From Acidobacteriota bacterium (lineage in GTDB: Bacteria; Acidobacteriota; UBA6911): a DNA stretch of 64,000 nt. Positions 4,595 through 25,777 of the stretch are shown here, in pieces. The notes beneath the pieces are model-generated. The model made no database searches. It saw nothing but the letters and a program-made list of their open reading frames with translations, and was not told the DNA's origin. Where the stretch lies: positions 1,280,001 to 1,344,000 of the forward strand of contig OY761556.1 in NCBI GenBank assembly GCA_963664705.1, given 5' to 3'. Position numbers and translations under genes: made by a program. Position 1 is the first letter of the stretch. Each line of letters starts with the position of its first letter.

Positions 4595-5659
4595 ATGCCT
4601 CGATCGGTTATCATTGGGAGCGGAACGTGTATTCCTCCCAACCTGGTTACCAATGACATGTTGTCCCGGATCATGGACGCTACCGACGAATGGATCCAGC
4701 AGCGGAGCGGGGTCGAGGCGCGGCACTTCGTTGATGAGGGGACGTCCACATCCGATCTCGGCCTGACGGCGGCTACCCAGGCTATCCAACTCGCCGGCAT
4801 TGACAAAAACGACCTGGACCTCATCGTCTTTGCCACCATGACTCCCGACTACTATTTCCCGGGATGCGGCGGATTGCTTCAATCCAAGCTGGGCATTAAA
4901 GATGTGCCCTGCTTCGATATCCGCCAGCAATGCGCTGGTTTCCTGTACGGCATGCAGTTGGCCGATGCACAGATCCGCGCCGGCGCGGCCAGGACCGTCC
5001 TGCTGGTCGGAGCCGAAACCCATACCGGCTTCATGCCCTGGACCAAGGACAATTACAACTATCTCTACGGCCGTATCGAAACTCCCCCGACCCCGGAGGA
5101 GTATGAATGGAATACTCGGTTCCGCAATGTGACGGTGCTGTTTGGAGATGCCGGCGCTGCCGTCGTCCTGAAAGCGGAAGAAACCGCCGATCGCGGCGTC
5201 ATCGACTGTATTCTTCGGACCAACGGGAGCGATTACGAACGGATTTATGTCCCGGGCGCCGGGTTCAAACATCGGCCATATATCGACATAGAACAGATTC
5301 AGCGGGGCGACCACATTCCTGTAATGAACGGGATGTATGTTTACCGGAATGCCACCCACGCGATGGTGAATGTCACCCGGGAAATCCTTGAACGCAATAA
5401 CCTGAAGCTCGAGGATATCTCCATGGTCCTGATGCATCAGGCCAATAAGCGCATCAATGAACGCGTCCAGAAAATGCTGGAGATCCCGGACGAAAAAGTA
5501 ATTTCCAATATCCATAAATACGGCAATACCACCGCCGCAACCATTCCACTGCTGTGGGATGAAGCGGTGCGCAGCGACCGGATCCATCCTGGAGATCTGG
5601 TTTTAATGGTTGCCTTTGGCGCCGGGATGAATTGGGGAGCCCTGCTGCTCCGGGCCTAG
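4595..5659 (+). CDS. 3-oxoacyl-ACP synthase III (FabH-like)
   Basis: Cys-His-Asn triad: DIRQQCAGF, MHQAN, YGNTTAA; LFGDAG; AFGAG. Confidence 0.92.
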   Translation: MPRSVIIGSGTCIPPNLVTNDMLSRIMDATDEWIQQRSGVEARHFVDEGTSTSDLGLTAATQAIQLAGIDKNDLDLIVFATMTPDYYFPGCGGLLQSKLGIKDVPCFDIRQQCAGFLYGMQLADAQIRAGAARTVLLVGAETHTGFMPWTKDNYNYLYGRIETPPTPEEYEWNTRFRNVTVLFGDAGAAVVLKAEETADRGVIDCILRTNGSDYERIYVPGAGFKHRPYIDIEQIQRGDHIPVMNGMYVYRNATHAMVNVTREILERNNLKLEDISMVLMHQANKRINERVQKMLEIPDEKVISNIHKYGNTTAATIPLLWDEAVRSDRIHPGDLVLMVAFGAGMNWGALLLRA

Positions 5660-5823: not shown

Positions 5824-7485
5824 ATGGAAAATAAAGGATTGGACAAGGAAGCACTCGATCTGACACTGGAAGCGTTGAAGGACTTCGCTGAAACCCATTT
5901 GCCGGAAAAAAAGATATTGGAGCTCGATGCGACGGAGGAATTCCCGGTCGAGATCGTCCGCGAAATGTGTAACCCGGGGGGACTGGGTATTCAGCTGCTC
6001 TTCATCCCAGAGGAGTTTGAGGGGATGGGTGGGGGAGCATTTGATGTTTACAGGGTTTGCGAGGAACTGGCCCGCATCGACCTTGGAGTTGCGACGGGCG
6101 TATTAGCCACTTTCCTTGGAAGCGACCCGATTATTTTCGGCGGCACCTACGAACAGAAGAAGCTCTGGATGACCCGCATTGGCCAGGAAGGTCTGTTGAT
6201 GGCCTATGGCGCCACCGAGCCGGAAGCCGGGAGCGACCTTGCGGCGCTGCGAACGGTAGCCGATCCCGTTATGGAAGACGGCAAGATCGTCGGATACAAA
6301 ATCACCGGAAACAAGCAATGGATCAGCAACGGCGGCTACGCGGATCTCTATTCCGTATTGGCCAAAACGCCTGGCGGTCCGACCTGGTTTATCGTCGAGC
6401 AGGGCGTTGATGGATTGAGCCATGGGAAGCCGGAGGACAAGCACGGCATACGCGCCAGCAATACTTCAACCGTGTCGCTCGAGGGAGTCCGGGTTGGCGT
6501 GGAAAGACTCATTGGCGGCGTGGAAGGCCAGGGCCTTATCCAGGCGCAGCTGGTGTTTGGCTATACGCGGCTGATGGTCGCCGCTTTCGGGTTGGGCGCC
6601 GGTTGGGCTGCCCTGGATCGCGCCATTCCCTACTCGATGGGCCGCATCGCCGGCGGAGCGCCGCTGTCGGAAAAGCAGGGATACACCCATAAGCTCATCA
6701 TTCCCAACGCCGTACTGCTGGAAGTCGGCCGTTCCTATATAGAAGAAACCGCTGAACGGATTGACAGCCAGGAAGGGAACCTCAATACGGAAGGCGCTAT
6801 TGCGAAATACCTGTCCACTGAAGCCGGAAATCTGGCCGCGGATGCTTCCATCCAGGCGCTGGGCGGATATGGCTATACCCGTGAATATATGGTTGAAAAG
6901 TACAAACGGGATGCCCGGATCACCCGAATCTATGAAGGGACGTCCGAAATCATGGAAATGACGATCTGCCGCGATCGTTGGCAGATACACCTGAAGACCC
7001 ACGGTCAGTTCTACCATGACATGGCTCGTCAGGCGGAGGAGCTTCATAAGCAGAACAACAAGCTGGGTGCCGATGTGGTGGCCTATTGCCTCCACGGTCT
7101 GGCCGATCTGCTCGAAGTGGCTCGGGCCCAGAGATTAACGCGGCATCAGCACATTCTTTTCCGGCTGGGCGAGTGGATTGCTCATGCCGAAGGCGTCTCC
7201 AGTCTTGCAAGGCGTGCCGGCAGAGCCGCCCAGGGGACCTTAAATCCAAAGTCTCACACCCGCTTCAATGCGGAAACGCTGGCTGCCCTCAGCCGGATTG
7301 CCGCCCGGGAAGCCGCCATGAAAGTGGTGAGCGAAGGGATGCGCTGGATCGGTGGTTTGATATCCGAAGCCGATGCGGCCGCCCTTGAGAAGAAATTGTT
7401 CATCCCGCAAATCCATCGCGCACAGGTTGGATTGCTCCAAGATATGGACTTCGTTGGAGACGTTTTATACGGAAGAAATAAATAG
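5824..7485 (+). CDS. acyl-CoA dehydrogenase family protein with C-terminal extension
   Basis: [34 protein letters not shown] (catalytic Glu), plus about 170 extra C-terminal residues. Confidence 0.9.
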
Positions 7486-7702: not shown

Positions 7703-10700
7703 ATGAAAGTATCTGCAGCGGAAAGAGCAGTTGCAATAGTTGGCGTCGGAGCCCTGATGCCGGATGCGCCGAATGCGCCGAAATTCTGGCAGAACGTCCG
7801 AGGGGGCGTTTACAGCATCAAGGATGTCGTGCAAGAGCGTTGGGATCCCAATCTGTATTACGATGCGGATCCGAAGGCTCCAGATAAGACCTATTCCAAG
7901 ATCGGCGGATGGGTTCGTGACTGGGAGTGGGATCCGCTAAAATGGAAGCTCCCCATTCCTCCCCGAGTCAGTCTCGCAATGGACCTGACCCAAAAGTGGG
8001 CCGTTGTCACCGCGAGAGAAGCCTTGGCGGATTTCGGCTATCCCAGCCGCGCCCTGAACGCTGAACGCACCGCCGTCATTTATGGCAATGCAATGGCCGG
8101 AGATACGCATCTGTATTCCGCCGCCAGGATTCTCTTTCCGGAGTTTGCGGAAGAACTGATCAAATCCACCAGCTATTCGGCCCTGCCGCCCGCAGTGCGC
8201 GAGTCGATCATGGAACAGCTCCATGAAGGCGTCCGACGCAAGACTCCTCCAATCACGGAGGATACGATGCCCGGGGAACTGGCCAACATCGTGGCCGGCC
8301 GCATCGCGGCTCTGTATGATTTCAAAGGGCCGAACTATGTAGCCGATGCCGCCTGCGCATCTGCCATGGCCGCGATGAGCGCCGCAATCGAGGGATTGAA
8401 TGCCCACGATTACGATGCCGTCCTGACCGGCGGAATCGACACGAACATGAGCCCCTCCACCTTCGTAAAGTTCTGCAAAATCGGCGCCCTGTCCGCAACC
8501 GGGTCCCGCCCTTATGCGGAAGGCTCCGACGGGTTCGTCATGGGGGAAGGCGCCGTTACGTTCCTGCTGAAGCGGTTGGCCGATGCCGAGCGGGATGGCG
8601 ATAAGATTTATGCGGTTATCCGCGGGATGGGCGGATCGAGCGATGGCAAAGGGAAGGGAATCACAGCGCCCAACCCGGCCGGACAAAAGATCTGTGTCCG
8701 CCGGGCCTGGCAGAAGGCCGGCGTGCTGCCCACGGTTGGCGATCTGATTGAAGGGCACGGCACCTCGACCGCAGTCGGCGACGTCGCCGAGTTTGAGAGC
8801 ATTGCCGAAGTCTTCAATGATTTCGGGCTGCCCAAGCAATCGATTCCGCTGGGCTCCGTGAAGTCCAACATCGGACATCTCAAAGGCGCGGCCGGATCCG
8901 CAGGTATTTTGAAGGCAATGTTCGCGCTGCATGCCAGAGAACTGCCGCCCAGCCTGAATTTCAATGAGCCCAACCACAACATCAATTTCAAAGACTCGCC
9001 GTTCTATGTGAATACGCAGTTGAAGCCCTGGGATGTGGAACCGGGAAAGGCACGCCGCGCGGCGGTCAGTGCCTTTGGATTCGGCGGTACCAATTTCCAT
9101 ATTGTTCTTGAAGAATACATCCCCGGCCGGATTGCCGGAGAGATCAAGACAACCACTTCCGTCCCGGTCTCTGCCGTGGCCTCCGCCCCTGCGGAGTTGA
9201 AGACGCCGCTGCGCGGAGCCCTCGTTTTGGGCGCTGATAACGAAGCTGCGGTCGTTGCCCGGCTGCGCGACATAGTCAAGGACGCGGAAGCCGGCAAAGC
9301 CCCGGCACCTGCCGTTCCGATGGAATCGGATCTGCGCGCTTCCGTCCGCCTGGCCATCGATTATGGCAATGCGGCTGAGCTTGCCGACAAGGGCGCCAAG
9401 GCGCTCAAGGCATTCGAGGAAAATCAGGTCGGGCGTTGGAAGGCGCTGCGCGCCAAGGGCATTTTCCTCGGCAAAGGCCCGGCTCCCAAGGTAGCTTTCC
9501 TGTTCACCGGGCAGGGCTCGCAGTACGTCAACATGATTCAGCACCTGCGGGAAACAGAGCCAATCGTTACCCGGACATTTGAGGCCGCCGATCGCATTAT
9601 GGAACCGCTGCTCGGCAAACCGCTGACCGAATGCATCTACCTCGACAAGTCGGATGCGGCGGCATTGGCAGCAGCCGAGGAAGGCCTCAAGCAGACCGCA
9701 ATCACGCAGCCCGCGGTTCTGGCCACAGAGACGGCGCTGGCGCGCATGCTGGGCGCCTACGGTATTCAGCCTGATATGGTGATGGGCCACAGCCTTGGCG
9801 AATACGGCGCCCTGGTTGCCGCCGGCGCCATTTCGTTTGACGAGGCTCTGAAGGCCGTCAGCGCACGCGGCAACGAGATGACCAAGTGTGCCTTCGATGA
9901 CAACGGTATGATGGCCGCTGTCGGCGGGCCGATTGACGAGATCCAGAAAGTCCTGGAAACGATCGACGATTACGTGGTTGTCGCCAATATCAACAGCACC
10001 AAGGAAGCGGTCATCGGCGGTTCCACCCAGGGAATCGAAAAAGCGATCGCTGCCCTGGGCACCGCCGGATACACGGCAAAAGCGCTGCAGGTAAGCCACG
10101 CGTTCCACACCAAGATCGTCGCGCCTGCGGGCGATTCCCTGGCCCGGATTCTCGGCGGCATGAACCTCCGTCCGCCGCAAATCCCGATTGTGACGAATGT
10201 GACCGGCGAGTTTTATCCCATGGGACCGGGCGTGGTTCCGGAGATGATCGGTCTGCTCGGGAAACAGGTGTCGTCCCCGGTTCAGTTCATCAAGGGGCTC
10301 AATACGCTCTACAATGCCGGTGCTCGGATTTTTGTCGACATCGGTCCAAAGCGAATCCTGTATGGATTTGTGGATGATGTGCTTGGCGCCAAAGATGGTG
10401 TTGTCCCCCTGTTCGGGAATCACCCGAGAATCGGCGATGCGGCCTCTCTGAATCTCGCGCTGTGCGGTCTCTATGCCGCGGGCCTGGGATTTGGTGAACC
10501 GGCGAAAGCGGTGGCTGTCGTTCCGGCGGCTCCGGTGGTCGCGGTTCCCGCGGTGCAGGCTTCCCTCACGGCGGCTCCGTCTGCGCCATCCTATCGGATG
10601 GAAAAGCTCGATCAGCCGCAGCGCGTGGCTCCTGCGTCATCCGACCGGTATGTCGAATTGGGCAAACTGTTCACCGAATTCATGGACCGCGGCTTCCAGC

Positions 10701-13700
10701 TTTACTCCGGCGGCGGACAGCGTGGACAGGCTCCCGTGGACATTTGTATCACAGGGGCGGCTCTGGGCCTGCCGGGCGTGAATGGCGTTTTCGACGATAC
10801 GAACGTTGAAAAGATTCTCCGCGGCGATGTATTCATCGACAAGATCCCTGCGCATTTGCGCGAGGCGATGGTTGAAAAGAACATTACGCGGCTGGTGAAA
10901 TCCGAAGGGGGCGAAGGAAGATTCGAAACCATCGGAAGTACGGCGGATGTGATCAAGCTGGCGGCGCGCGCCAAGGAATTCGATATCGTTCGCGATTTCG
11001 GCTTCCCAGAGGACCGCATGCCTGCGCTGGACCGCGTGACGCAGCTGGCCATTGGCGCCGGTATCGATGCGCTGCGCGATGCCGGCATCCCGCTGGTTAT
11101 GCGCTACAAGACCACCACGAAAGGAACTTTGCTTCCCGATCGTTGGCAGCTGCCTGAAGAGATTCGTGATGACACGGGAATCCTCTTTACTTCGGCATTC
11201 CCGGGATACGATTCCTATGAAAAGATCATCGCCGATTTCTACAAGGACAAGAATCGTCGTCAGCGCCTGGAAGAACTCAGCAGCCTGCGCGAACTGGCCG
11301 CCAGAGCCGGTTCCGGCAACGGCGTTTCCCAGGAACTCGACAAGCGAATCAAAGACCTGACGGAGGAGATCGAAAAGAATGTATATCATTTCGATCGCCG
11401 TTTCCTGTTCCGCGTTCTTTCAATGGGCCATTCCCAGTTCGCCGAATACATCGGCGCCCGCGGGCCCAACACCTCGACCAACGGAGCCTGCGCAAGCGGC
11501 ACTCAGGCCGTCGGGCTCGCCAGCGACTGGATCCGTACCGGACGCTGCAAGCGCGTCATCATTGTTTCCGCGGACGATATCACTTCTGAAAACCTCATGG
11601 GCTGGTTCGGTTCCGGATTCCTGGCTTCCGGATCGGCTGCGACGGATGAGATCGTCGAAGATGCGGCCACTCCGTTCGATCGCCGGCGCCATGGCCTGAT
11701 CATTGGAATGGGCGCATCCGCCGTCGTGATCGAAAGTGTGGACTCGGCCCGCGAGCGCGGCGTCCGCCCGATCTGCCATGTGCTGGGATCGGTGGTGGCC
11801 AACAGTGCGTTCCACGGAACCCGTCTGGACACGAGCCACATCCGCCACGTGATGGAAAGACTGATTTCCACGGCGGAAAAGGAATGGGGTATCAATCGGT
11901 TCGAGATAGCTCCCGAGACGGTATTTGTTTCCCATGAAACATACACGCCGGCCCGCGGCGGCAGCGCATCGGCGGAAGTCTTCGCGCTGCGGCACGTGTT
12001 CAAGGATGCGACCGATCAGATTATCGTGGCCAATACCAAAGGTGCCACCGGGCACCCGATGGCCGTGGGTATTGAAGATGTCGTTTCGGTCAAAATCCTG
12101 GAAACCGGCATCGTTCCCGCTGTTCCCAATTTCAAGGAAGTGGACCCCGAACTTGGCCAGCTGAACCTCTCAAAAGGCGGACCGTACCCCGTGCGCTATG
12201 CGTTGAGACTGGGTGCCGGCTTCGGATCGCAGATTTGTATGACCCTGCTGCGCTGGGCGCCCACCCCCGATGGGAGACGTCCGGCTCCGACAGGGCTCGG
12301 TTACCAATACAGAATCGAAGATCAGACCGCCTGGAACAACTGGCTGAAGCGCCTTGCGGGCAATAATGCGGCGGAGCTGGAAGTGGTACAGCGCACGCTC
12401 CGGATCAAAGATCAGGGCGTTGCCGCAAGAATGGAAAACGGGAATGGATCGGCTGCCGCCACAATTCCTCAGATTGCCGCCCCGGCGGCTGCAATATCGG
12501 AACCGGCGCCGGCTGTTTCTGCTCCTGCTGCGACGGCTGTGCCTTCAGCGGTGGAGCCGGCTGCGTCCATCTCCGACCCGGTGAAAGATGCGGTCATGCG
12601 GATTATCGCCGAAAAGACCGGCTATCCCTCCGACATGCTCGATCCCGATCTTGATCTGGAAGCGGATCTCGGCATCGACACGGTAAAACAGGCGGAGATG
12701 TTTGCCGCCATTCGAGCGGAATATGACATCCCGCGCGAAGACAACCTGAAGCTGCGCGATTTCCCGACGCTGGCGCACATCATCCAGTTCGTGTATGACC
12801 GCCGGCCGGATATGAAGCGCGCGGCAGCCCCTGTTCAGGCTGCCAAAGTTTCCGAGCCTGCTCCTGCAGCAGCGGCGACAGCACCGGCTCCGGTGCAGGC
12901 CGCCGCGGCGCCGGCCGATTCCGGCGATGATGCCGTGAAGGAAATGGTCCTGAAGATCATCGCGGAAAAAACCGGGTATCCCTCCGACATGCTGGACCTG
13001 GATCTCGATCTCGAGGCAGACCTCGGGATTGACACGGTAAAGCAGGCCGAAATGTTTGCCTCAATCCGCGCGGCCTACGACATTCCGCGCGAGGACAATC
13101 TGAAGCTGCGCGATTTTCCGACGCTGGCGCACATCATTCAGTTTGTGTACGACCGGAAGCCCGATCTGAAACCGTCGGCCAAACCGGCCGCGGCGGCAGC
13201 ACCCGTTGCCGCACCGGCGGCAGTGGCTCCTGCGGCAGCCGCAACCGAAGATGATGGCGTTAAAGACATGGTCCTCAAGATCATTGCGGAAAAAACCGGC
13301 TATCCACCGGATATGCTGGATCTCGATCTCGATCTCGAAGCAGATCTTGGGATCGATACCGTAAAGCAGGCCGAGATGTTCGCGACCATCCGCGCGGCTT
13401 ATGACATCCCGCGCGAAGACAATTTGAAGCTGCGCGATTTCCCGACGCTGGCGCATATCATTCAGTTCGTGTACGACCGGAAGCCCGGGTTGAAGCAGTC
13501 CGATGCGACCGGGACTCCGGCCGAATCGAAGGCTGCGGAACCACCGGCAACGGCGGAAGCGCCCAAACCGGTAGCGGCCAGTTTTGATGCCGCCAACGCC
13601 GTGCCAAGGCGTCTGCCCGTTCCCAAACTTCGGCCGGCGCTGAGTGTCTGCAAGCCAACCGGCGTTGCTCTGAAACCGGGAAGCCGGGTCGTCGTGATGC

Positions 13701-16120
13701 CGGACCAGGGCGGAGTAGGAAAAGCTCTGATCGGAAGACTCGAGAAGCTCGGAGTCCAAGTCCTTGTGATCGACGGCGTGCCCGATGTGAAGTTCCTCGC
13801 GAAATACATCGAGGGATGGAAGGCCGAAGGCCCGATCCAGGGGATTTACTGGCTCCCCGCGCTTGATCAGGCCGGCGATGTTTCCTCCATGACTCTTGTT
13901 CAGTGGAAGGAAGCGACGCGGGTGCGGGCAAAGCTGCTGTTTGCCACGATCCAGAGTCTTTACGATCAGATCGGCGAGCCGGGAACTTTCCTGGTTTCCG
14001 CGACGCGATTGGGCGGCCAGCATGGATACGATGAAGCCGGCGCGGCCGATGCCCTGGGTGGATCGGTGTCCGGGTTCACCAAAGCCTTCAAACGTGAGAA
14101 GCCGAATGCAACCGTAAAGGTGATCGACTTCGAGCCGAGCCGCAAGACAAGCGCACTCGCGGATCTCCTGGTGGATGAAACGCTCCGGGATCCGGGAGCG
14201 GTGGAAATCGGCTACAAAGATGGCCAGCGTTTTACGGTTGGTCTGGTTGAAAGGCCGGTTGCGGAAGCGACACCGGTTCAGCTCAACAAAGATACGGTCT
14301 TTGTGGTAACCGGCGCGGCAGGAAGCATCGTTTCCGCCATCACCGCGGATCTTGCGGCCGCTTCGAGCGGAATCTTCTACCTGCTCGACCTCACGCCGGA
14401 GCCGGATGCGGCAAACAGCGACCTCGCTCGCCTGGTGACCGATAAAGAAGGCTTGAAGCGCGATATCTTCGAACGGTTCAAAGTGCGTGGCGAACGCGCG
14501 ACACCGGTCATGGTCGATCGCGAAATCGCCTCGCTCGAACGGTCCCGCGCTGCACTGGATGCCATCCTGGCCGTCAAGAACGCAGGCGGAACGGTTCACT
14601 ACTGCAGCCTCGATTTGACCGATCAGGGTGCGGTGGGCAAAGTCGTCAAGGATATCGCCGACCGGTATGGCCGCATCGATGTTTTGATGCACGCTGCCGG
14701 CCTCGAAATCAGCCACATGGTTCCCGACAAGAAGACGTCGGAATTCGACCTTGTCTTCGATGTGAAGAGCGATGGCTGGTTCAACCTTCTTTCCAGCATG
14801 GGAGAAATGCCGCTCGGCGCGGCGGTGGTATTCAGCTCCGTTGCCGGACGCTTCGGCAACTCCGGGCAGACCGATTACAGCTCGGCCAATGATCTGCTCT
14901 GCAAATGCATCTCGAATTTCCGCACGACGCGGCCACAGACAAGAGGTATCTCGATTGACTGGACGGCGTGGAGTGGAATCGGAATGGCATCCAGGGGCTC
15001 CATTCCTGTCATCATGAAACAGGCCGGCATCGATATGCTTCCTCCCGAGGCCGGTATCTCGATCGTGCGCCGCGAACTGCTGGCCGGCACGGGTGGAGAG
15101 CTTGTGATCGGGCAGAAGTTGGGAATCCTGGTTCAGGAATTTGATCCGCAGGGCGGACTGGATGTGACTGCTGGCGGAACGCTTGAAGCGTCGCTGAAGG
15201 ATCGCGGGATCATGATCGGAGCCGTCGAGGGCATGGGTCTGTACGGTGGATTGACGATTGAAACAACTCTCGATCCAACCCAGCAGCCGTTCCTCTTCGA
15301 CCACCAGATCAGTCAGACCCCGGTGCTTCCGGGCGTCATGGGTCTGGAAGCCATGGCGGAAGCCGCCAGGCTTCTCTTCCCGGACCGCTATGTCGGAGCC
15401 ATCACCGATGTCAGCTTCATGACTCCGTTCAAGTTCTATCGCAACCAGCCGCGCGCGATTAAGATCTACGTGGACTTCTTCGCGGACAACGAGGATATCG
15501 TCGCGGATTGCAGGCTTGTCGGTTCTCGCCTGCTGCACGGGCATGCGGAACCGGAAATCACGACGCATTTCACCGGTCGTGTGCGCCTGACAACGCAACC
15601 GCCCAAGGCTGCCAAGGAAAACGCCGTCTCCGCGCGAACGAGCGGTGCCAGGGCGGAAGCGGCGCAAATCTACAAGGTTTACTTCCATGGACCGGCGTAT
15701 CAGGTGATCGACAGCGCATGGCAGTCGGGCGGCAACATTGTCGCATCGTTTGCCAGGGAACTGCCGGTCAACCATGTGCCGGCCGAACTGCCGGTGCTGG
15801 CTTCGCCAAGGTATGTGGAACTCTGCTTCCAGGCGGCCAGCCTGTCCGGACTCGCCGGACAGTCGCGGCTTGGTTTGCCGAATTCCTTCAAGGAGCTGCG
15901 AGTCCTCTCGATGCCTGAGAAGGAGTCGGATGGAAACTTCTTCTCCGTGGTTGCCACCAACCCGGATGGGACCTATGATGCGAAGGTGCTGGACGGCAAG
16001 GGAAAGGTTTATCTGACCCTCCGCGGCTACCAGACCATGGATCTCCCGGATCCGGTTCAGGCGGATCTCATTCAGCCCATCAAGGCAGCGTTGCAGCCGG
16101 AGCTGTCGGAGAAAGCATAA
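7703..16120 (+). CDS. iterative type I PKS/FAS-like megasynthase, KS-AT-KS-ACPx3-KR-DH (PfaA-related)
   Basis: KS1 DAACAS/EGHGTST/NIGHL; AT GQGSQ/GHSLG/HAFH; KS2 NGACAS/SHETYT/TGHPM; three DLEADLGIDTVKQAE ACP repeats; KR TGAAGSI, GNSGQTDYSSAN; DH DHQISQTPVLP, FHGPAYQ; GGAGG RBS. Confidence 0.93.
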   Translation: MKVSAAERAVAIVGVGALMPDAPNAPKFWQNVRGGVYSIKDVVQERWDPNLYYDADPKAPDKTYSKIGGWVRDWEWDPLKWKLPIPPRVSLAMDLTQKWAVVTAREALADFGYPSRALNAERTAVIYGNAMAGDTHLYSAARILFPEFAEELIKSTSYSALPPAVRESIMEQLHEGVRRKTPPITEDTMPGELANIVAGRIAALYDFKGPNYVADAACASAMAAMSAAIEGLNAHDYDAVLTGGIDTNMSPSTFVKFCKIGALSATGSRPYAEGSDGFVMGEGAVTFLLKRLADAERDGDKIYAVIRGMGGSSDGKGKGITAPNPAGQKICVRRAWQKAGVLPTVGDLIEGHGTSTAVGDVAEFESIAEVFNDFGLPKQSIPLGSVKSNIGHLKGAAGSAGILKAMFALHARELPPSLNFNEPNHNINFKDSPFYVNTQLKPWDVEPGKARRAAVSAFGFGGTNFHIVLEEYIPGRIAGEIKTTTSVPVSAVASAPAELKTPLRGALVLGADNEAAVVARLRDIVKDAEAGKAPAPAVPMESDLRASVRLAIDYGNAAELADKGAKALKAFEENQVGRWKALRAKGIFLGKGPAPKVAFLFTGQGSQYVNMIQHLRETEPIVTRTFEAADRIMEPLLGKPLTECIYLDKSDAAALAAAEEGLKQTAITQPAVLATETALARMLGAYGIQPDMVMGHSLGEYGALVAAGAISFDEALKAVSARGNEMTKCAFDDNGMMAAVGGPIDEIQKVLETIDDYVVVANINSTKEAVIGGSTQGIEKAIAALGTAGYTAKALQVSHAFHTKIVAPAGDSLARILGGMNLRPPQIPIVTNVTGEFYPMGPGVVPEMIGLLGKQVSSPVQFIKGLNTLYNAGARIFVDIGPKRILYGFVDDVLGAKDGVVPLFGNHPRIGDAASLNLALCGLYAAGLGFGEPAKAVAVVPAAPVVAVPAVQASLTAAPSAPSYRMEKLDQPQRVAPASSDRYVELGKLFTEFMDRGFQLYSGGGQRGQAPVDICITGAALGLPGVNGVFDDTNVEKILRGDVFIDKIPAHLREAMVEKNITRLVKSEGGEGRFETIGSTADVIKLAARAKEFDIVRDFGFPEDRMPALDRVTQLAIGAGIDALRDAGIPLVMRYKTTTKGTLLPDRWQLPEEIRDDTGILFTSAFPGYDSYEKIIADFYKDKNRRQRLEELSSLRELAARAGSGNGVSQELDKRIKDLTEEIEKNVYHFDRRFLFRVLSMGHSQFAEYIGARGPNTSTNGACASGTQAVGLASDWIRTGRCKRVIIVSADDITSENLMGWFGSGFLASGSAATDEIVEDAATPFDRRRHGLIIGMGASAVVIESVDSARERGVRPICHVLGSVVANSAFHGTRLDTSHIRHVMERLISTAEKEWGINRFEIAPETVFVSHETYTPARGGSASAEVFALRHVFKDATDQIIVANTKGATGHPMAVGIEDVVSVKILETGIVPAVPNFKEVDPELGQLNLSKGGPYPVRYALRLGAGFGSQICMTLLRWAPTPDGRRPAPTGLGYQYRIEDQTAWNNWLKRLAGNNAAELEVVQRTLRIKDQGVAARMENGNGSAAATIPQIAAPAAAISEPAPAVSAPAATAVPSAVEPAASISDPVKDAVMRIIAEKTGYPSDMLDPDLDLEADLGIDTVKQAEMFAAIRAEYDIPREDNLKLRDFPTLAHIIQFVYDRRPDMKRAAAPVQAAKVSEPAPAAAATAPAPVQAAAAPADSGDDAVKEMVLKIIAEKTGYPSDMLDLDLDLEADLGIDTVKQAEMFASIRAAYDIPREDNLKLRDFPTLAHIIQFVYDRKPDLKPSAKPAAAAAPVAAPAAVAPAAAATEDDGVKDMVLKIIAEKTGYPPDMLDLDLDLEADLGIDTVKQAEMFATIRAAYDIPREDNLKLRDFPTLAHIIQFVYDRKPGLKQSDATGTPAESKAAEPPATAEAPKPVAASFDAANAVPRRLPVPKLRPALSVCKPTGVALKPGSRVVVMPDQGGVGKALIGRLEKLGVQVLVIDGVPDVKFLAKYIEGWKAEGPIQGIYWLPALDQAGDVSSMTLVQWKEATRVRAKLLFATIQSLYDQIGEPGTFLVSATRLGGQHGYDEAGAADALGGSVSGFTKAFKREKPNATVKVIDFEPSRKTSALADLLVDETLRDPGAVEIGYKDGQRFTVGLVERPVAEATPVQLNKDTVFVVTGAAGSIVSAITADLAAASSGIFYLLDLTPEPDAANSDLARLVTDKEGLKRDIFERFKVRGERATPVMVDREIASLERSRAALDAILAVKNAGGTVHYCSLDLTDQGAVGKVVKDIADRYGRIDVLMHAAGLEISHMVPDKKTSEFDLVFDVKSDGWFNLLSSMGEMPLGAAVVFSSVAGRFGNSGQTDYSSANDLLCKCISNFRTTRPQTRGISIDWTAWSGIGMASRGSIPVIMKQAGIDMLPPEAGISIVRRELLAGTGGELVIGQKLGILVQEFDPQGGLDVTAGGTLEASLKDRGIMIGAVEGMGLYGGLTIETTLDPTQQPFLFDHQISQTPVLPGVMGLEAMAEAARLLFPDRYVGAITDVSFMTPFKFYRNQPRAIKIYVDFFADNEDIVADCRLVGSRLLHGHAEPEITTHFTGRVRLTTQPPKAAKENAVSARTSGARAEAAQIYKVYFHGPAYQVIDSAWQSGGNIVASFARELPVNHVPAELPVLASPRYVELCFQAASLSGLAGQSRLGLPNSFKELRVLSMPEKESDGNFFSVVATNPDGTYDAKVLDGKGKVYLTLRGYQTMDLPDPVQADLIQPIKAALQPELSEKA

Positions 16121-16124
16121 CCTC

Positions 16125-16844
16125 ATGATTTCAGATGCCGGATTTCAGATTTCAGAATGTCCTGATGGACAGAGCTGGAATCTGAAATCCGGGGACTGGA
16201 ATCTCCTCTGCATTACCCGTACCTCGAAACAGATTCCCCTGGATGATAACTGGCTAAGCAAGGAAGAGCGTGAGGTGGTGTCGGCATTTCGCTTCCCAAA
16301 GCGAAGAACCGATTGGCGCCTGGGTCGCTGGACGGCAAAACAGACCATTTGTCTGCTTAAGAATTGGGGCGATTCCGCGCTTGCATCGCTGGAAATACGT
16401 TCGGATTCCAATGGAGCGCCGGAAGTTTTTTTTGAAGGAAAGCCGGCCGACGTCTCCATCTCGATCAGCCACAGCGGGGACCGGAGTTTTTGTCTGGCCG
16501 GCCCGCGAACCCTGGCCGCCGGGTGCGACCTCGAGTGGATAGAACCGCGCGAGAAAAATTTTGCGCCCGATTATTTTACGGATGAAGAACTTGCGTTTGT
16601 GCTGCAGGCGCAGGATAAACGCGAAATGGCCGAAACGCTTATCTGGAGTGCGAAGGAATCCGCCCTTAAAGTCATCCGCAAAGGATTGACGCTGGACACG
16701 CGCAGCGTTGGGATTCGGCCGGATTTCGCCGAGCCGAGTGAAGTCTGGCAGCGCTGGACCGGTAAGTCCCTGGATCCGCCAAGGATCTACCATGGCCTCT
16801 GGCGCGCAGCCGACAGTTTTATCTATACGCTGGCTGTAGCGTGA
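16125..16844 (+). CDS. 4'-phosphopantetheinyl transferase (Sfp-type)
   Basis: GAP, SISHS, GCDLE, WSAKESALK; 4 nt downstream of the PKS stop. Confidence 0.9.
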   Translation: MISDAGFQISECPDGQSWNLKSGDWNLLCITRTSKQIPLDDNWLSKEEREVVSAFRFPKRRTDWRLGRWTAKQTICLLKNWGDSALASLEIRSDSNGAPEVFFEGKPADVSISISHSGDRSFCLAGPRTLAAGCDLEWIEPREKNFAPDYFTDEELAFVLQAQDKREMAETLIWSAKESALKVIRKGLTLDTRSVGIRPDFAEPSEVWQRWTGKSLDPPRIYHGLWRAADSFIYTLAVA

Positions 16845-18007: not shown

Positions 18008-18730
18008 ATGGCCAAGGAATTTCAGCCGGCGCAACCGTTCCCGCGCACGGCAATAGGTTTTCTGCCGGAATACCTCGATTTTGAGCGGGGCATCCATGTG
18101 GGGAACCTTGAAGAAAATCAGCGCATCACCCGCATCCTGAAACTGGCGCTTGAAGCGCGCTACCGGGAGCCGTTTGTGACGGAACGCTTCGGACGCGGGG
18201 TCTACTGGCAGTGGATTGGTTTTCTGCCGCGCGCCAATCGGAGTGCCAAACCGATCTCCTCAAAGGTCAGTTTCGGGTGCTCCAAGTTTTATTTAACGGT
18301 TGATACGGAGACCAAGGTTTTCAAGTGCGGATTCTCCGTGGAGCGCGGATTCCTCGAGTCCCCGGATTTTCCCGCGATTGAACTGAAGTCCGATTTTGAC
18401 TGGCATCGGCTGACGGCCGCATTGAAGCCTTCGGGCGCAATGGAGCGTGAGTTGAAACGGCTGGTGGTTCGCGAGGGATTCAGAGTCGATGCCGGCAGCT
18501 GGGAGCGTCCGTTTTCGGCGACGAAGAGCCGGTTCCCCAGTATGGCCAAGCTGAAAAGCGCCCTCGATGAGGCCCCGGGCGCATCATGGGCAGGTTTTCA
18601 GGTATACTACCCGATGCCGGAAAAAGATGTGCGCGGCTCATCCGGAGTCGATTTGATTGAATCGATGATGGCCATTTTTGACGAGGTCACTCCGGCGATG
18701 AATTTGTGCATGCAGATCCGGCTCGAGTAA
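18008..18730 (+). CDS. hypothetical protein
   Basis: 240-aa ORF with host-like codon usage; no motif recognised. Confidence 0.75.
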   Translation: MAKEFQPAQPFPRTAIGFLPEYLDFERGIHVGNLEENQRITRILKLALEARYREPFVTERFGRGVYWQWIGFLPRANRSAKPISSKVSFGCSKFYLTVDTETKVFKCGFSVERGFLESPDFPAIELKSDFDWHRLTAALKPSGAMERELKRLVVREGFRVDAGSWERPFSATKSRFPSMAKLKSALDEAPGASWAGFQVYYPMPEKDVRGSSGVDLIESMMAIFDEVTPAMNLCMQIRLE

Positions 18731-24347: not shown

Positions 24348-25777
24348 GATTTGTTCGTCTGACCGAATGAGGAGTTTCGGAAAGGTCTTGGCGGAAATTC
24401 CCGACCGATGATTCATGTTGCTGAGGAATACGGGAAGAAAGCTTGTAATGGGCTTAGCTGTTACTGCTTGAGGCGAGTAAACAAGCCTGTTGCGAGGAGA
24501 GATGCGAAGTCTGAAGGGGCGCGTAGTTTAGATCCGGAATAGATCCTATTGATCTGGAATGCAATTGGCCTTGAGGCTATGTAAAAGCAGACCGAGCGGC
24601 CGACAAGCCCTTTATCCAATGCCGGTTGAGCCGTCCCGCGAATTCACGCATGTGCGTCAGGCTGCCGGCGGCCACCTGGAATGCGGAACCAAAATGCGAC
24701 ACTGTTTCAATCCATTCCTTGGGAATAACTCCAATGCGATTCAGGATCGGGGCAAGACGGCTATCAATGAACCCGCGCTTGTCAGAGCGAATCATGCGTC
24801 CCGATCGGTCGACCAAATCAAAATACTCGGCTGTGGATGTGTCGAGGATACCACGCCGGCTCGGGGTTGATTGAATTGGGGCCAACCAACAGTCTGCAGA
24901 ATCCCGAAGAGAAGAGCTCGAAGCAGTTCCGGGTGTTGAGGGAGCATTAATCGTGTCATCAGTTTGACAAGGAGAACAATCGAAAGCCGGGCCCGAATCA
25001 CTGGGTTGAGGGGCTGGTTGCTGGGACAAGGATTGGCGATGCCAGGCGCGGATACGCTCCTGAATGCTGGTGAAGTCGCTGTCTTCGGGAGTGGAGGCAG
25101 CGCCGGCCCGAACCATATTCAGATCCACATAGACCAAGCAAGCTGTAATGGCAGAAGCATCCAGAAGCACCAGGCATTTAAAGCGAGATTCCCAGAAGCG
25201 GCCCTTGACCTTATCTTCCTTGTTAGCCTTGCGAGCGATGAATTCACTGAGTTTGGCCACGAACCAGCTCAGGCTGCCCAGCCGCTTGCGCAGAACAGTA
25301 ATGTGTTCCGGACAATCTGCTAATGCCTGGATCTGTTCGACCCTAGGAGGAAGAGGCTTTTTGCTGGTGCGCGGTTTTCGGGGGCAGAGTTCTAGCCATC
25401 GGGCGGCGACGTCGAGATCGGACCAGGACTCAAGAATGTCGGGTCGGGTTCGCAAGATGGAATGCACGTGGTTTTCCATGATGGCATAACCGCACACGTC
25501 AATGGCGAAGATGCCGGCAAGTTGTTTCAAACGATCGAGAATCCATTTTTTGCGATGGGAGAAATCCCGGCCGCTAAGAGGGTCATACCCGCAAAGAAAA
25601 GATCTGCGGACACATCGACTGATGCAATGATAAACGCCTTCCTCACCTTCGATGACATAGATGTTTCTTGCCAATCCCATGGTTTGCCTCCTTGCATAGT
25701 TACTAATGGCGAACCTTGGGAATTGAGCGAAGAAAAATTGGAGGCAATGGAACAAAACAGTGGGTGTCCAGGTTTTT
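24330..25777 (-). mobile_element. RAYT-like (IS200/IS605-superfamily HUH Y1) element with 18-bp inverted ends
   Basis: AAAAACCTGGACACCCAC (24330-24347) and its reverse complement (25760-25777) flank the transposase gene. Confidence 0.75.
24577..25680 (-). CDS. HUH/Y1 tyrosine transposase (RAYT-like)
   Basis: VYHCISRCVRR, GYAIMENHVH (HUH), FWESRFK, YVDLNMVRAG (catalytic Tyr); GGAGG RBS. Confidence 0.88.
   Translation of the reverse strand: MGLARNIYVIEGEEGVYHCISRCVRRSFLCGYDPLSGRDFSHRKKWILDRLKQLAGIFAIDVCGYAIMENHVHSILRTRPDILESWSDLDVAARWLELCPRKPRTSKKPLPPRVEQIQALADCPEHITVLRKRLGSLSWFVAKLSEFIARKANKEDKVKGRFWESRFKCLVLLDASAITACLVYVDLNMVRAGAASTPEDSDFTSIQERIRAWHRQSLSQQPAPQPSDSGPAFDCSPCQTDDTINAPSTPGTASSSSLRDSADCWLAPIQSTPSRRGILDTSTAEYFDLVDRSGRMIRSDKRGFIDSRLAPILNRIGVIPKEWIETVSHFGSAFQVAAGSLTHMREFAGRLNRHWIKGLSAARSAFT

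Follow-up and report, generated by a model that had tools for sequence, protein, structure and literature searches.

The closest described counterpart of the gene studied here is the Type R secondary lipid synthase of Shulse & Allen (2011; PMC3098273), which the accessible part of that survey catalogues without a product as a ketosynthase (KS), malonyl acyltransferase (MAT), chain-length factor (CLF), three to six acyl carrier proteins (ACPs) and a ketoreductase (KR), accompanied by a phosphopantetheinyl transferase (PPTase); there, the absence of fabA/fabZ led to the proposal of a core fatty acid synthesis role for Types M and S. Literature searches, most subscription papers being beyond reach, turned up no functional work on Type R. 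The DNA analysed here (64,000 nucleotides of contig OY761556.1 from an Acidobacteriota bacterium of lineage UBA6911, referred to as the window) contains a 2805-aa open reading frame (ORF) of this kind with the domain order KS1-AT-KS2-ACPx3-KR-DH (AT, acyltransferase; DH, dehydratase; Table 1). We propose, with a probability of roughly 55%, that it encodes an iterative type I synthase in which two KSs work in relay, and which is the main fatty acid synthase (FAS) of its host, replacing FAS II in the genus.

The locus shares with Type R a single pfaA-homologous gene of the order KS-MAT-[second KS-fold domain]-ACP3-6-KR, Acidobacteria among the hosts, and a PPTase gene downstream; in Koribacter an acetyl-CoA carboxylase gene lies between synthase and PPTase, as in many related loci. 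Members named for Type R are Koribacter, Solibacter, Elusimicrobium and Roseiflexus. The architecture itself has been known since 2011. However, the survey names the second KS-fold domain a CLF, whereas here the catalytic set is kept, and the CLF label is probably wrong; the available text on Type R (PMC3098273) makes no mention of a C-terminal DH, of a partner from the acyl-CoA dehydrogenase family (ACAD) with electron transfer flavoprotein (ETF), or of loss of FAS II. Polyunsaturated fatty acid (PUFA) synthases of Moritella and Shewanella (PfaA/PfaC) resemble the locus in the KS1/AT match, the tandem ACPs and the presence of two KSs. As far as the consulted sections go, two active KSs divide elongation in these systems and PfaB is the terminal acyltransferase (Lofeudo 2026, PMC12895367), and the PfaA MAT charges soluble ACP and takes the place of FabD in vivo (Allemann & Allen 2021, PMC8174602). 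In contrast, the second KS here is FabF-like and on the same chain, with no CLF; the cluster has no FabA-type DH pair, and a PfaB AT, a PfaC KS-CLF-DH2 and a PfaD enoyl reductase (ER) were absent both from the scanned window neighbours and from the genes that recur around related synthases. The type I FASs of animals and of fungi and corynebacteria are multifunctional iterative chains with one KS, the animal enzyme carrying ER and thioesterase (TE) on the chain. Enediyne polyketide synthases (KS-AT-ACP-KR-DH-PPTase) likewise have one KS and, with no known reductase partner, make polyenes; their domain order resembles that of the PPTase-fused variants described below.

Scanning with Pfam and NCBIfam models placed KS1 at residues 8-472, with PfaA as top family match (KS1 and AT together matched TIGR02813 best, at 971 bits, under the cut-off of 1010), and a second KS at residues 1012-1517, in frame between AT and the ACPs, where the initial annotation had seen a divergent KS; no ER or TE domain was detected in the ORF. 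KS2 matched FabF hidden Markov models (HMMs) at E 4e-42, as well as the sequences of FabF crystal structures; on the FabF equivalog TIGR03150 it scored 144 bits, below the curated cut-off of 493.75. An AlphaFold2 (AF2) model from a 21-sequence alignment (pLDDT 86.9) superposed on FabF over 402 residues with Z 48.6 and an rmsd of 2.1 Å (VIA-align), matched FabF in Foldseek with a TM-score of 0.88 of target, and has the thiolase/KAS II fold (KAS, ketoacyl-ACP synthase). Since HMM, crystal-sequence and superposition matches agree, the resemblance is not due to chance, and KS2 is a genuine second ketosynthase.

Conservation was followed in 151 rows (the query and 150 representatives from clustering at 50%) and in 62 aligned representatives longer than 2300 aa. 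The Cys and two His residues initially read from the motifs NGACAS, SHETYT and TGHPM were located at C1263, H1411 and H1451; together with K1446 and F1507 they are widely kept (C1263/H1411/K1446/H1451/F1507 in 149/145/144/146/137 of the 151 rows), the segment SHETYTPARGG is about 95% conserved in the same rows, and C, H, E, T, K, H, E and F of KS2 are all invariant in the 62 long homologues. Sequence and profile alignments also retain the two threonines equivalent to T305/T307 of FabF, for which a pantetheine-binding role is described in the part of PMC9006962 available, and find the set of an elongating KS (Cys-His-His, Lys, gate Phe, two Thr) complete in KS2. The canonical motifs annotated for KS1 were located at residues 215 (DAACAS), 352 (HGTST) and 391 (GHL). 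Mean identity to the query among the long homologues is 0.48 for KS2 and 0.49 for KS1, as compared to 0.45, 0.37 and 0.30 for AT, KR and DH. In these alignments KS2 is constrained as strongly as KS1; it is very probably catalytic, and the suggestion of two active condensing sites gains strong support from conservation.

With FabF/KAS II of E. coli and Pseudomonas, KS2 shares the fold, the Cys-His-His and Lys residues, F400 (F1507) and T305/T307. It differs in an identity of only about 24%, in forming a clade of its own, in being embedded in a type I chain, in three inserts, and in HET replacing HGT, with Glu (E1412) at FabF G304, beside His1411. The D265-N404 gate pair, treated as a KAS feature in PMC9006962 as far as seen, is missing from KS2, which has S1368 and I1511 instead; KS1 keeps the pair. 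BLAST aligned KS1 and KS2 at an E value of only 0.044, so that KS2 did not arise by duplication of KS1. In a quick IQ-TREE analysis of 60 domains, a long branch with full support separates the 24 KS2s from all the others; this tree, rooted at the midpoint and built without CLF, FabB or FabY references, shows distinctness only. The charged, coiled-coil-like insert pointed out initially (DKNRRQRLEEL...DLTEEIEK, residues 1182-1225) forms a hairpin of two helices in the AF2 model (model residues 158-191 and 195-214), and two further hairpin inserts relative to FabF are present. The sequence of the charged insert varies widely, and 13 of the 77 representatives in which it could be measured have it shortened by about 40 residues; as an essential feature it was dropped, KS1 and KS2 inserts (47-58 versus 28-81) showing no scaling in 24 sequences. 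No clear case of a free-standing KS2 was seen among proteins of 279-891 aa, which are mostly partial or truncated entries whose matches were not inspected singly. Coupling analysis (MI-APC, 185 paired sequences, Meff about 100) gave no convincing contacts even within domains and hence had no power.

The acyl pocket offers an indication of what KS2 might do. Its residues S-A-F-P-G were placed on S106-G107-I108-G109-G110 of FabF by MAFFT, HMMER and hhalign alike (HMMER using E. coli FabF 1b3n/1kas, via the short-insert homologue P0193), with F1166 at I108. This position is aromatic (F/Y/W) in 148 of the 151 rows and its partner F1306 (F202 in FabF) is Phe in 136, whereas KS1 has Met or Leu at the I108 site in 60 of 72 sequences. 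According to the sections of PMC9006962 consulted, I108 and F202 of FabF form a gate at C7-C8, the engineered I108F variant mainly elongates C6 to C8, and Met at the I108 site of a mitochondrial KS can swing away for long chains; the portion seen of a preprint (bioRxiv 10.64898/2026.02.26.708327) agrees on the short-chain restriction by I108F. KS2, which has Phe at position 108 like the engineered variant, would be suited to initiation and short chains, and KS1, with Met/Leu, to long ones. That KS2 works on short chains is moderately probable from this signature, which lends specific support to a division of work by chain length, one of the two roles put forward in the initial annotation.

AT, KS, KR, DH, ACP and PPTase, as parts of a full cycle, are present; the ER would be the upstream ACAD, and relatives carry a fused FabK-type ER. 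In a set of 80 genome loci from Acidobacteriota, Actinomycetota, Gemmatimonadota, Calditrichota and other groups, an ACAD gene lies upstream of the synthase in all 70 with enough flank. ETF (26 of 65) and an Fe-S/CCG oxidoreductase (25 of 65) accompany it on that side, while on the downstream side an acetyl-CoA carboxylase of one chain, containing the ACC_central domain of such enzymes (45/59), and a PPTase (38/59) recur. In 80 metagenome loci, 64 of them informative, 59 have the ACAD only, five a fused FabK-type ER only, and none both or neither. Thus all 129 informative loci without a fused ER have the ACAD upstream, and none of the five ER-fused ones does; this distribution makes it likely that the ACAD acts as the enoyl reductase. 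For an ETF-linked ACAD that reduces enoyl thioesters, Bcd/Etf provides a catabolic precedent. The window ACAD resembles reductive ACADs (clostridial Bcd/Etf, AcrC) in its match to AcrC NF042972 (209 bits, below cut-off), and such loci in the clustering with ETF and Fe-S oxidoreductase; however, Bcd/Etf and AcrC act on CoA thioesters in catabolism, whereas the action proposed here would be biosynthetic and on ACP-bound substrates. An oxidative role, introducing double bonds, may also be considered.

In the closed genome of the host (6.9 Mb, 98% complete), the synthase AT is the sole FabD-family match, no FabF scores over the cut-off, and FabI and DegV/FakB were not found; AccA/AccD-like genes, AcpP, AcpS, PlsX, PlsY, FabZ and LpxA are retained. 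The host has no working FAS II by this inventory, with residual FabZ, FabG-like and FabK-like genes; an earlier reading of "no FabK" from a motif scan was overridden by an HMM match below cut-off. The family was sampled with 51 genomes, 30 of the host genus and 21 of other genera. None of the 30 has FabD or FabF over cut-off or FabI (the lone FabD trace being a 157-aa fragment in G493), 26 have no KAS II at E<=1e-100, 27 have KS2 and 29 the FabH-like gene of the cluster. The 21 genomes of other genera contain FabD in nine, FabF in 18, the cluster FabH in two, KS2 in 15 and FabI in three, the last being KS2-negative throughout and the only FabI carriers in the family sample. One stand-alone condensing enzyme is retained either way, FabF or the FabH-like protein. 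FabD was kept in all 20 tested same-class genomes without KS2.

Gene order around plsX and acpP forms a stepwise deletion series of FAS II genes: the outgroup G270 has yceD-rpmF-plsX-fabD-fabG-acpP-fabF-etfBA and G235, from another family, plsX-fabG-acpP-fabF, the sister genera G063, G210 and G280 have plsX-acpP-fabF, and plsX-acpP-etfBA is left in the host (G000) and in G220, G290 and G300. Because FabD, FabF and FabI were not found in the 30 genus genomes, and in view of this operon, the synthase is quite likely the main source of fatty acids in the host genus. The genes etfB-etfA also end the fab operon at L120:4862-6665 and L131:581-2363, as in G270, and FAS II there may likewise depend on enoyl reduction linked to ETF; etfBA behind acpP was rejected as a synthase-specific trait, as the outgroup carries these genes as well. 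In two synthase carriers FAS II genes are interrupted, fabF by a TAG codon in G205 (L130:626-1864) and fabD by a split in G452 (C14:717734-718562), through either decay or sequencing error.

In the proposed reaction sequence, AT would load malonyl units onto the tandem ACPs, KS2 would carry out the first rounds on a small primer, either acetyl or a short acyl group supplied by the FabH-like neighbour, to about C6-C8, and KS1 would take the later rounds up to membrane length, with KR and DH working in every round and the adjacent, ETF-fed ACAD reducing enoyl-ACP. Finished chains would pass to the stand-alone AcpP and on to PlsX/PlsY, the transfer to AcpP probably occurring by transacylation via stand-alone FabF in sister genera or the FabH-like protein in the host genus. 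The host also has an olefin cluster with OleA-, OleC- and OleD-like genes (L024:2878-7676; G000:C1 about 5.053-5.058 Mb), a possible consumer of the synthase chains.

Several findings weigh against this proposal. The cluster contains neither a TE nor a second AT, and chain release is therefore unexplained. FabB evades the same pocket block through a second pocket (bioRxiv 10.64898/2026.02.26.708327, as far as available), and KS2 may not act like FabF I108F because of the changed G304 site, the lost D265-N404 pair and the two extra hairpin inserts. The five ER-fused loci look like one clade. In the host genome there are a FabG-like short-chain dehydrogenase/reductase over cut-off besides FabZ, a protein of the FabK/NMO family that stays under the cut-off at 288.6 bits (such a gene occurs in 17 of the 30 genus genomes), two thiolases over cut-off, and a further KAS II, under the FabF cut-off, inside an ACP-KS-type III polyketide synthase-methyltransferase cluster; the outgroup G270, which has no synthase, was likewise found to contain neither FabI nor FabV. 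FabD is kept by 12 of 14 other Acidobacteriota carriers outside the family and in at least 28 of 50 carrier genomes from various phyla, with four close relatives of the host among them; these 50 were examined out of the 80 loci, and the remaining 22 are undecided since divergent FabDs fall under the cut-off and completeness is not given. In most carriers outside the family the synthase is therefore not the sole FAS and may make a special lipid. Many genomes, moreover, are incomplete metagenome-assembled genomes (MAGs), and those of one genus and its kin are not independent.

A special-lipid function might extend to the host itself, bulk acyl chains then being made by a hybrid of AT-malonylated AcpP and a FAS II remnant, by CoA-based reverse β-oxidation, or being taken up. 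The loading of soluble ACP by the PfaA MAT with replacement of FabD is a precedent for such a hybrid (PMC8174602, in the part seen), FabD-less sister genera retain FabF, and the FabZ, FabG-like, FabK-like and thiolase genes left in the host, like the FabD of many carriers, fit this explanation as well. However, with KAS II missing at the threshold given above from most genus genomes and over cut-off in none, chains on AcpP could not be elongated without KS1 or KS2; the FabK-like gene is patchily distributed, DegV/FakB was not found in the host genome, and the cluster is present in most genus genomes, which together make this explanation rather unlikely. That KS2 is instead an off-loading transacylase, KS1 elongating throughout and KS2 moving the finished chain to CoA or AcpP, would account for a cluster devoid of TE and PfaB-type second AT, given that PUFA synthases end with PfaB (PMC12895367, accessible part). 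KS2 is the sole extra invariant catalytic domain, its new invariant Glu beside His1411 and altered front gate could reflect such a task, and the host needs acyl-AcpP for PlsX and LpxA. We nevertheless regard off-loading by KS2 as unlikely: an aromatic gate at the I108 site should keep long chains out, a stand-alone FabF or FabH able to carry out the transfer occurs in nearly every family genome, and both His, Lys and Phe1507, used in decarboxylative condensation, are invariant. Transacylating KSs usually lack the first His.

The second role offered in the initial annotation, the joining of two acyl chains, would amount to a head-to-head condensation as in mycolate, OleA or ketone formation, with Glu1412 as base and the carboxylase activating one chain. 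The invariant Glu of HETYT, the frequent clustering of a carboxylase and the missing D265-N404 pair are compatible with it, but the short-looking pocket, the malonyl-type AT and the loss of FAS II genes, which it would not explain, leave the joining of two long chains unsupported. In addition, Phe1507 (F400), thought to disfavour α-branched substrates (PMC9006962, as far as seen), is kept, the clustered carboxylase carries ACC_central of acetyl-CoA carboxylases, and the host has its separate OleA/C/D cluster, so that we consider this role improbable. Least probable is a non-catalytic CLF paired with KS1, as in the 2011 label (PMC3098273, available part), to which the long stem branch and the non-canonical motifs would be congenial. 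The Cys/His/Lys/His/Phe set, invariant in all 62 long homologues, argues against a CLF, a class marked by loss of the catalytic Cys or the Cys-His-His triad, as do the origin of KS2 apart from KS1 duplication and the existence of true triad-less KS-like domains in three-KS variants, beside which KS2 is still kept.

Relatives of the synthase are common, at least 572 having been found in a genome scan, and homologues also occur in records from Korobacteraceae, Bryobacteraceae and Chloroflexales. In long, complete-enough representatives a canonical KS1 stands upstream of KS2, and the positions of the ACPs vary. The three-KS variants (P0211, P0218, P0259; P0252, P0256, P0258) have an extra domain ahead of AT-KS2, which is either a second copy of KS1 that retains its Cys or a CLF-like domain lacking the triad; P0258 from Desulfobacter reads ER-KS-KS'-AT-KS2-ACP4-KR-DH. 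Other relatives carry both the FabK-type ER and the PPTase on the same chain: P0154, labelled Asgard at NCBI, is complete with ER-KS-AT-KS2-ACP-KR-DH-PPTase, the Asgard-labelled partial sequences P0149, P0152 (Heimdallarchaeota) and P0156 (Thorarchaeota) have part of this layout, and P0226, labelled Thermoplasmatota, has all or part of it. On two long low-GC contigs, L138:9989-20734 and L144:9977-20716, the gene lies beside those for carboxyltransferase, biotin carboxylase, biotin carboxyl carrier protein and BirA. A recurring α/β hydrolase gene next to the synthase on L138 and L144 could code for a release thioesterase. Earlier work had pointed out a PUFA-like KS in a MAG of Heimdallarchaeota, in the text available without reading it as a one-chain FAS (PMC7472256). 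Eight proteins (P0168, P0206, P0208, P0212, P0213, P0216, P0234 and P0246) start with a domain of 250-350 aa that gave no Pfam hit in those of the proteins that were scanned; it shows weak similarity to the N-terminal half of the fused ER and is perhaps a degenerate or split ER.

As a tentative generalisation, somewhat less probable than not, these proteins might represent a third kind of type I FAS, derived from PfaA, in which a short-chain, FabF-like starter KS hands over to a long-chain KS and reduction is due to ETF-ACAD or a fused FabK; FAS II would have given way to it in several lineages of bacteria, and in Asgard and Thermoplasmatota archaea a self-activating one-chain form next to acetyl-CoA carboxylase genes would provide fatty acids de novo. 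The catalogue entry of 2011, listed without a product, becomes a testable pathway. If the proposal is correct, some bacteria make their membrane fats by a one-chain relay of two KSs and not by FAS II, an ACAD working in the reverse direction adds another type of enoyl-ACP reductase, the engineered short-chain FabF I108F has its natural equivalent in KS2, and the Asgard-labelled form bears on fatty acid synthesis by the archaeal relatives of eukaryotes.

Table 1. Features of the synthase locus; positions refer to the window, numbers in brackets to the first base of the codon.
Feature	Position	Strand	Remarks
FabH-like KAS III	4595..5659	+	C-H-N motifs present
ACAD-family flavoprotein	5824..7485	+	constant upstream neighbour; candidate enoyl reductase
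Type R megasynthase ORF, 2805 aa	7703..16120	+	KS1-AT-KS2-ACPx3-KR-DH
KS1, PfaA-like ketosynthase	7724..9118	+	C218 (8354), H352 (8756), H392 (8876); Met131 (8093) aligned with FabF I108
AT, malonyl-type	9488..10417	+	GHSLG, Arg722, HAFH
KS2, FabF-fold ketosynthase of its own clade	10736..12262	+	C1263 (11489), H1411 (11933), E1412, K1446 (12038), H1451 (12053), F1507 (12221)
F1166, aligned with E. coli FabF I108 (back gate of acyl pocket)	11198..11200	+	partner F1306 (11618) = F202
Variable charged helical-hairpin insert of KS2, aa 1169-1225	11207..11377	+	shorter in some homologues
Three tandem ACPs	12578..13480 (12578-12802, 12935-13156, 13259-13480)	+	LGIDT in each
KR	14273..15142	+	K2355, S2379, Y2392 invariant in 61/61
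PKS-type (polyketide synthase) DH	15203..16117	+	H2534, E2706, Q2710 invariant in 165/165
Sfp-type PPTase	16125..16844	+	begins 5 bases past the synthase stop

Promoter and terminator scans gave results near chance. The KAS II in the ACP-KAS II-type III polyketide synthase-methyltransferase cluster mentioned above (L023:7932-11906; G000:C1 about 6.267-6.271 Mb) is the sole stand-alone KAS II of the host. Beyond the synthase cluster, the window contains a 240-aa ORF without Pfam or NCBIfam match (18008-18730, plus strand), which is kept near the cluster in three close loci. A 392-aa ORF on the minus strand (24577-25755) resembles REP-associated tyrosine transposases.

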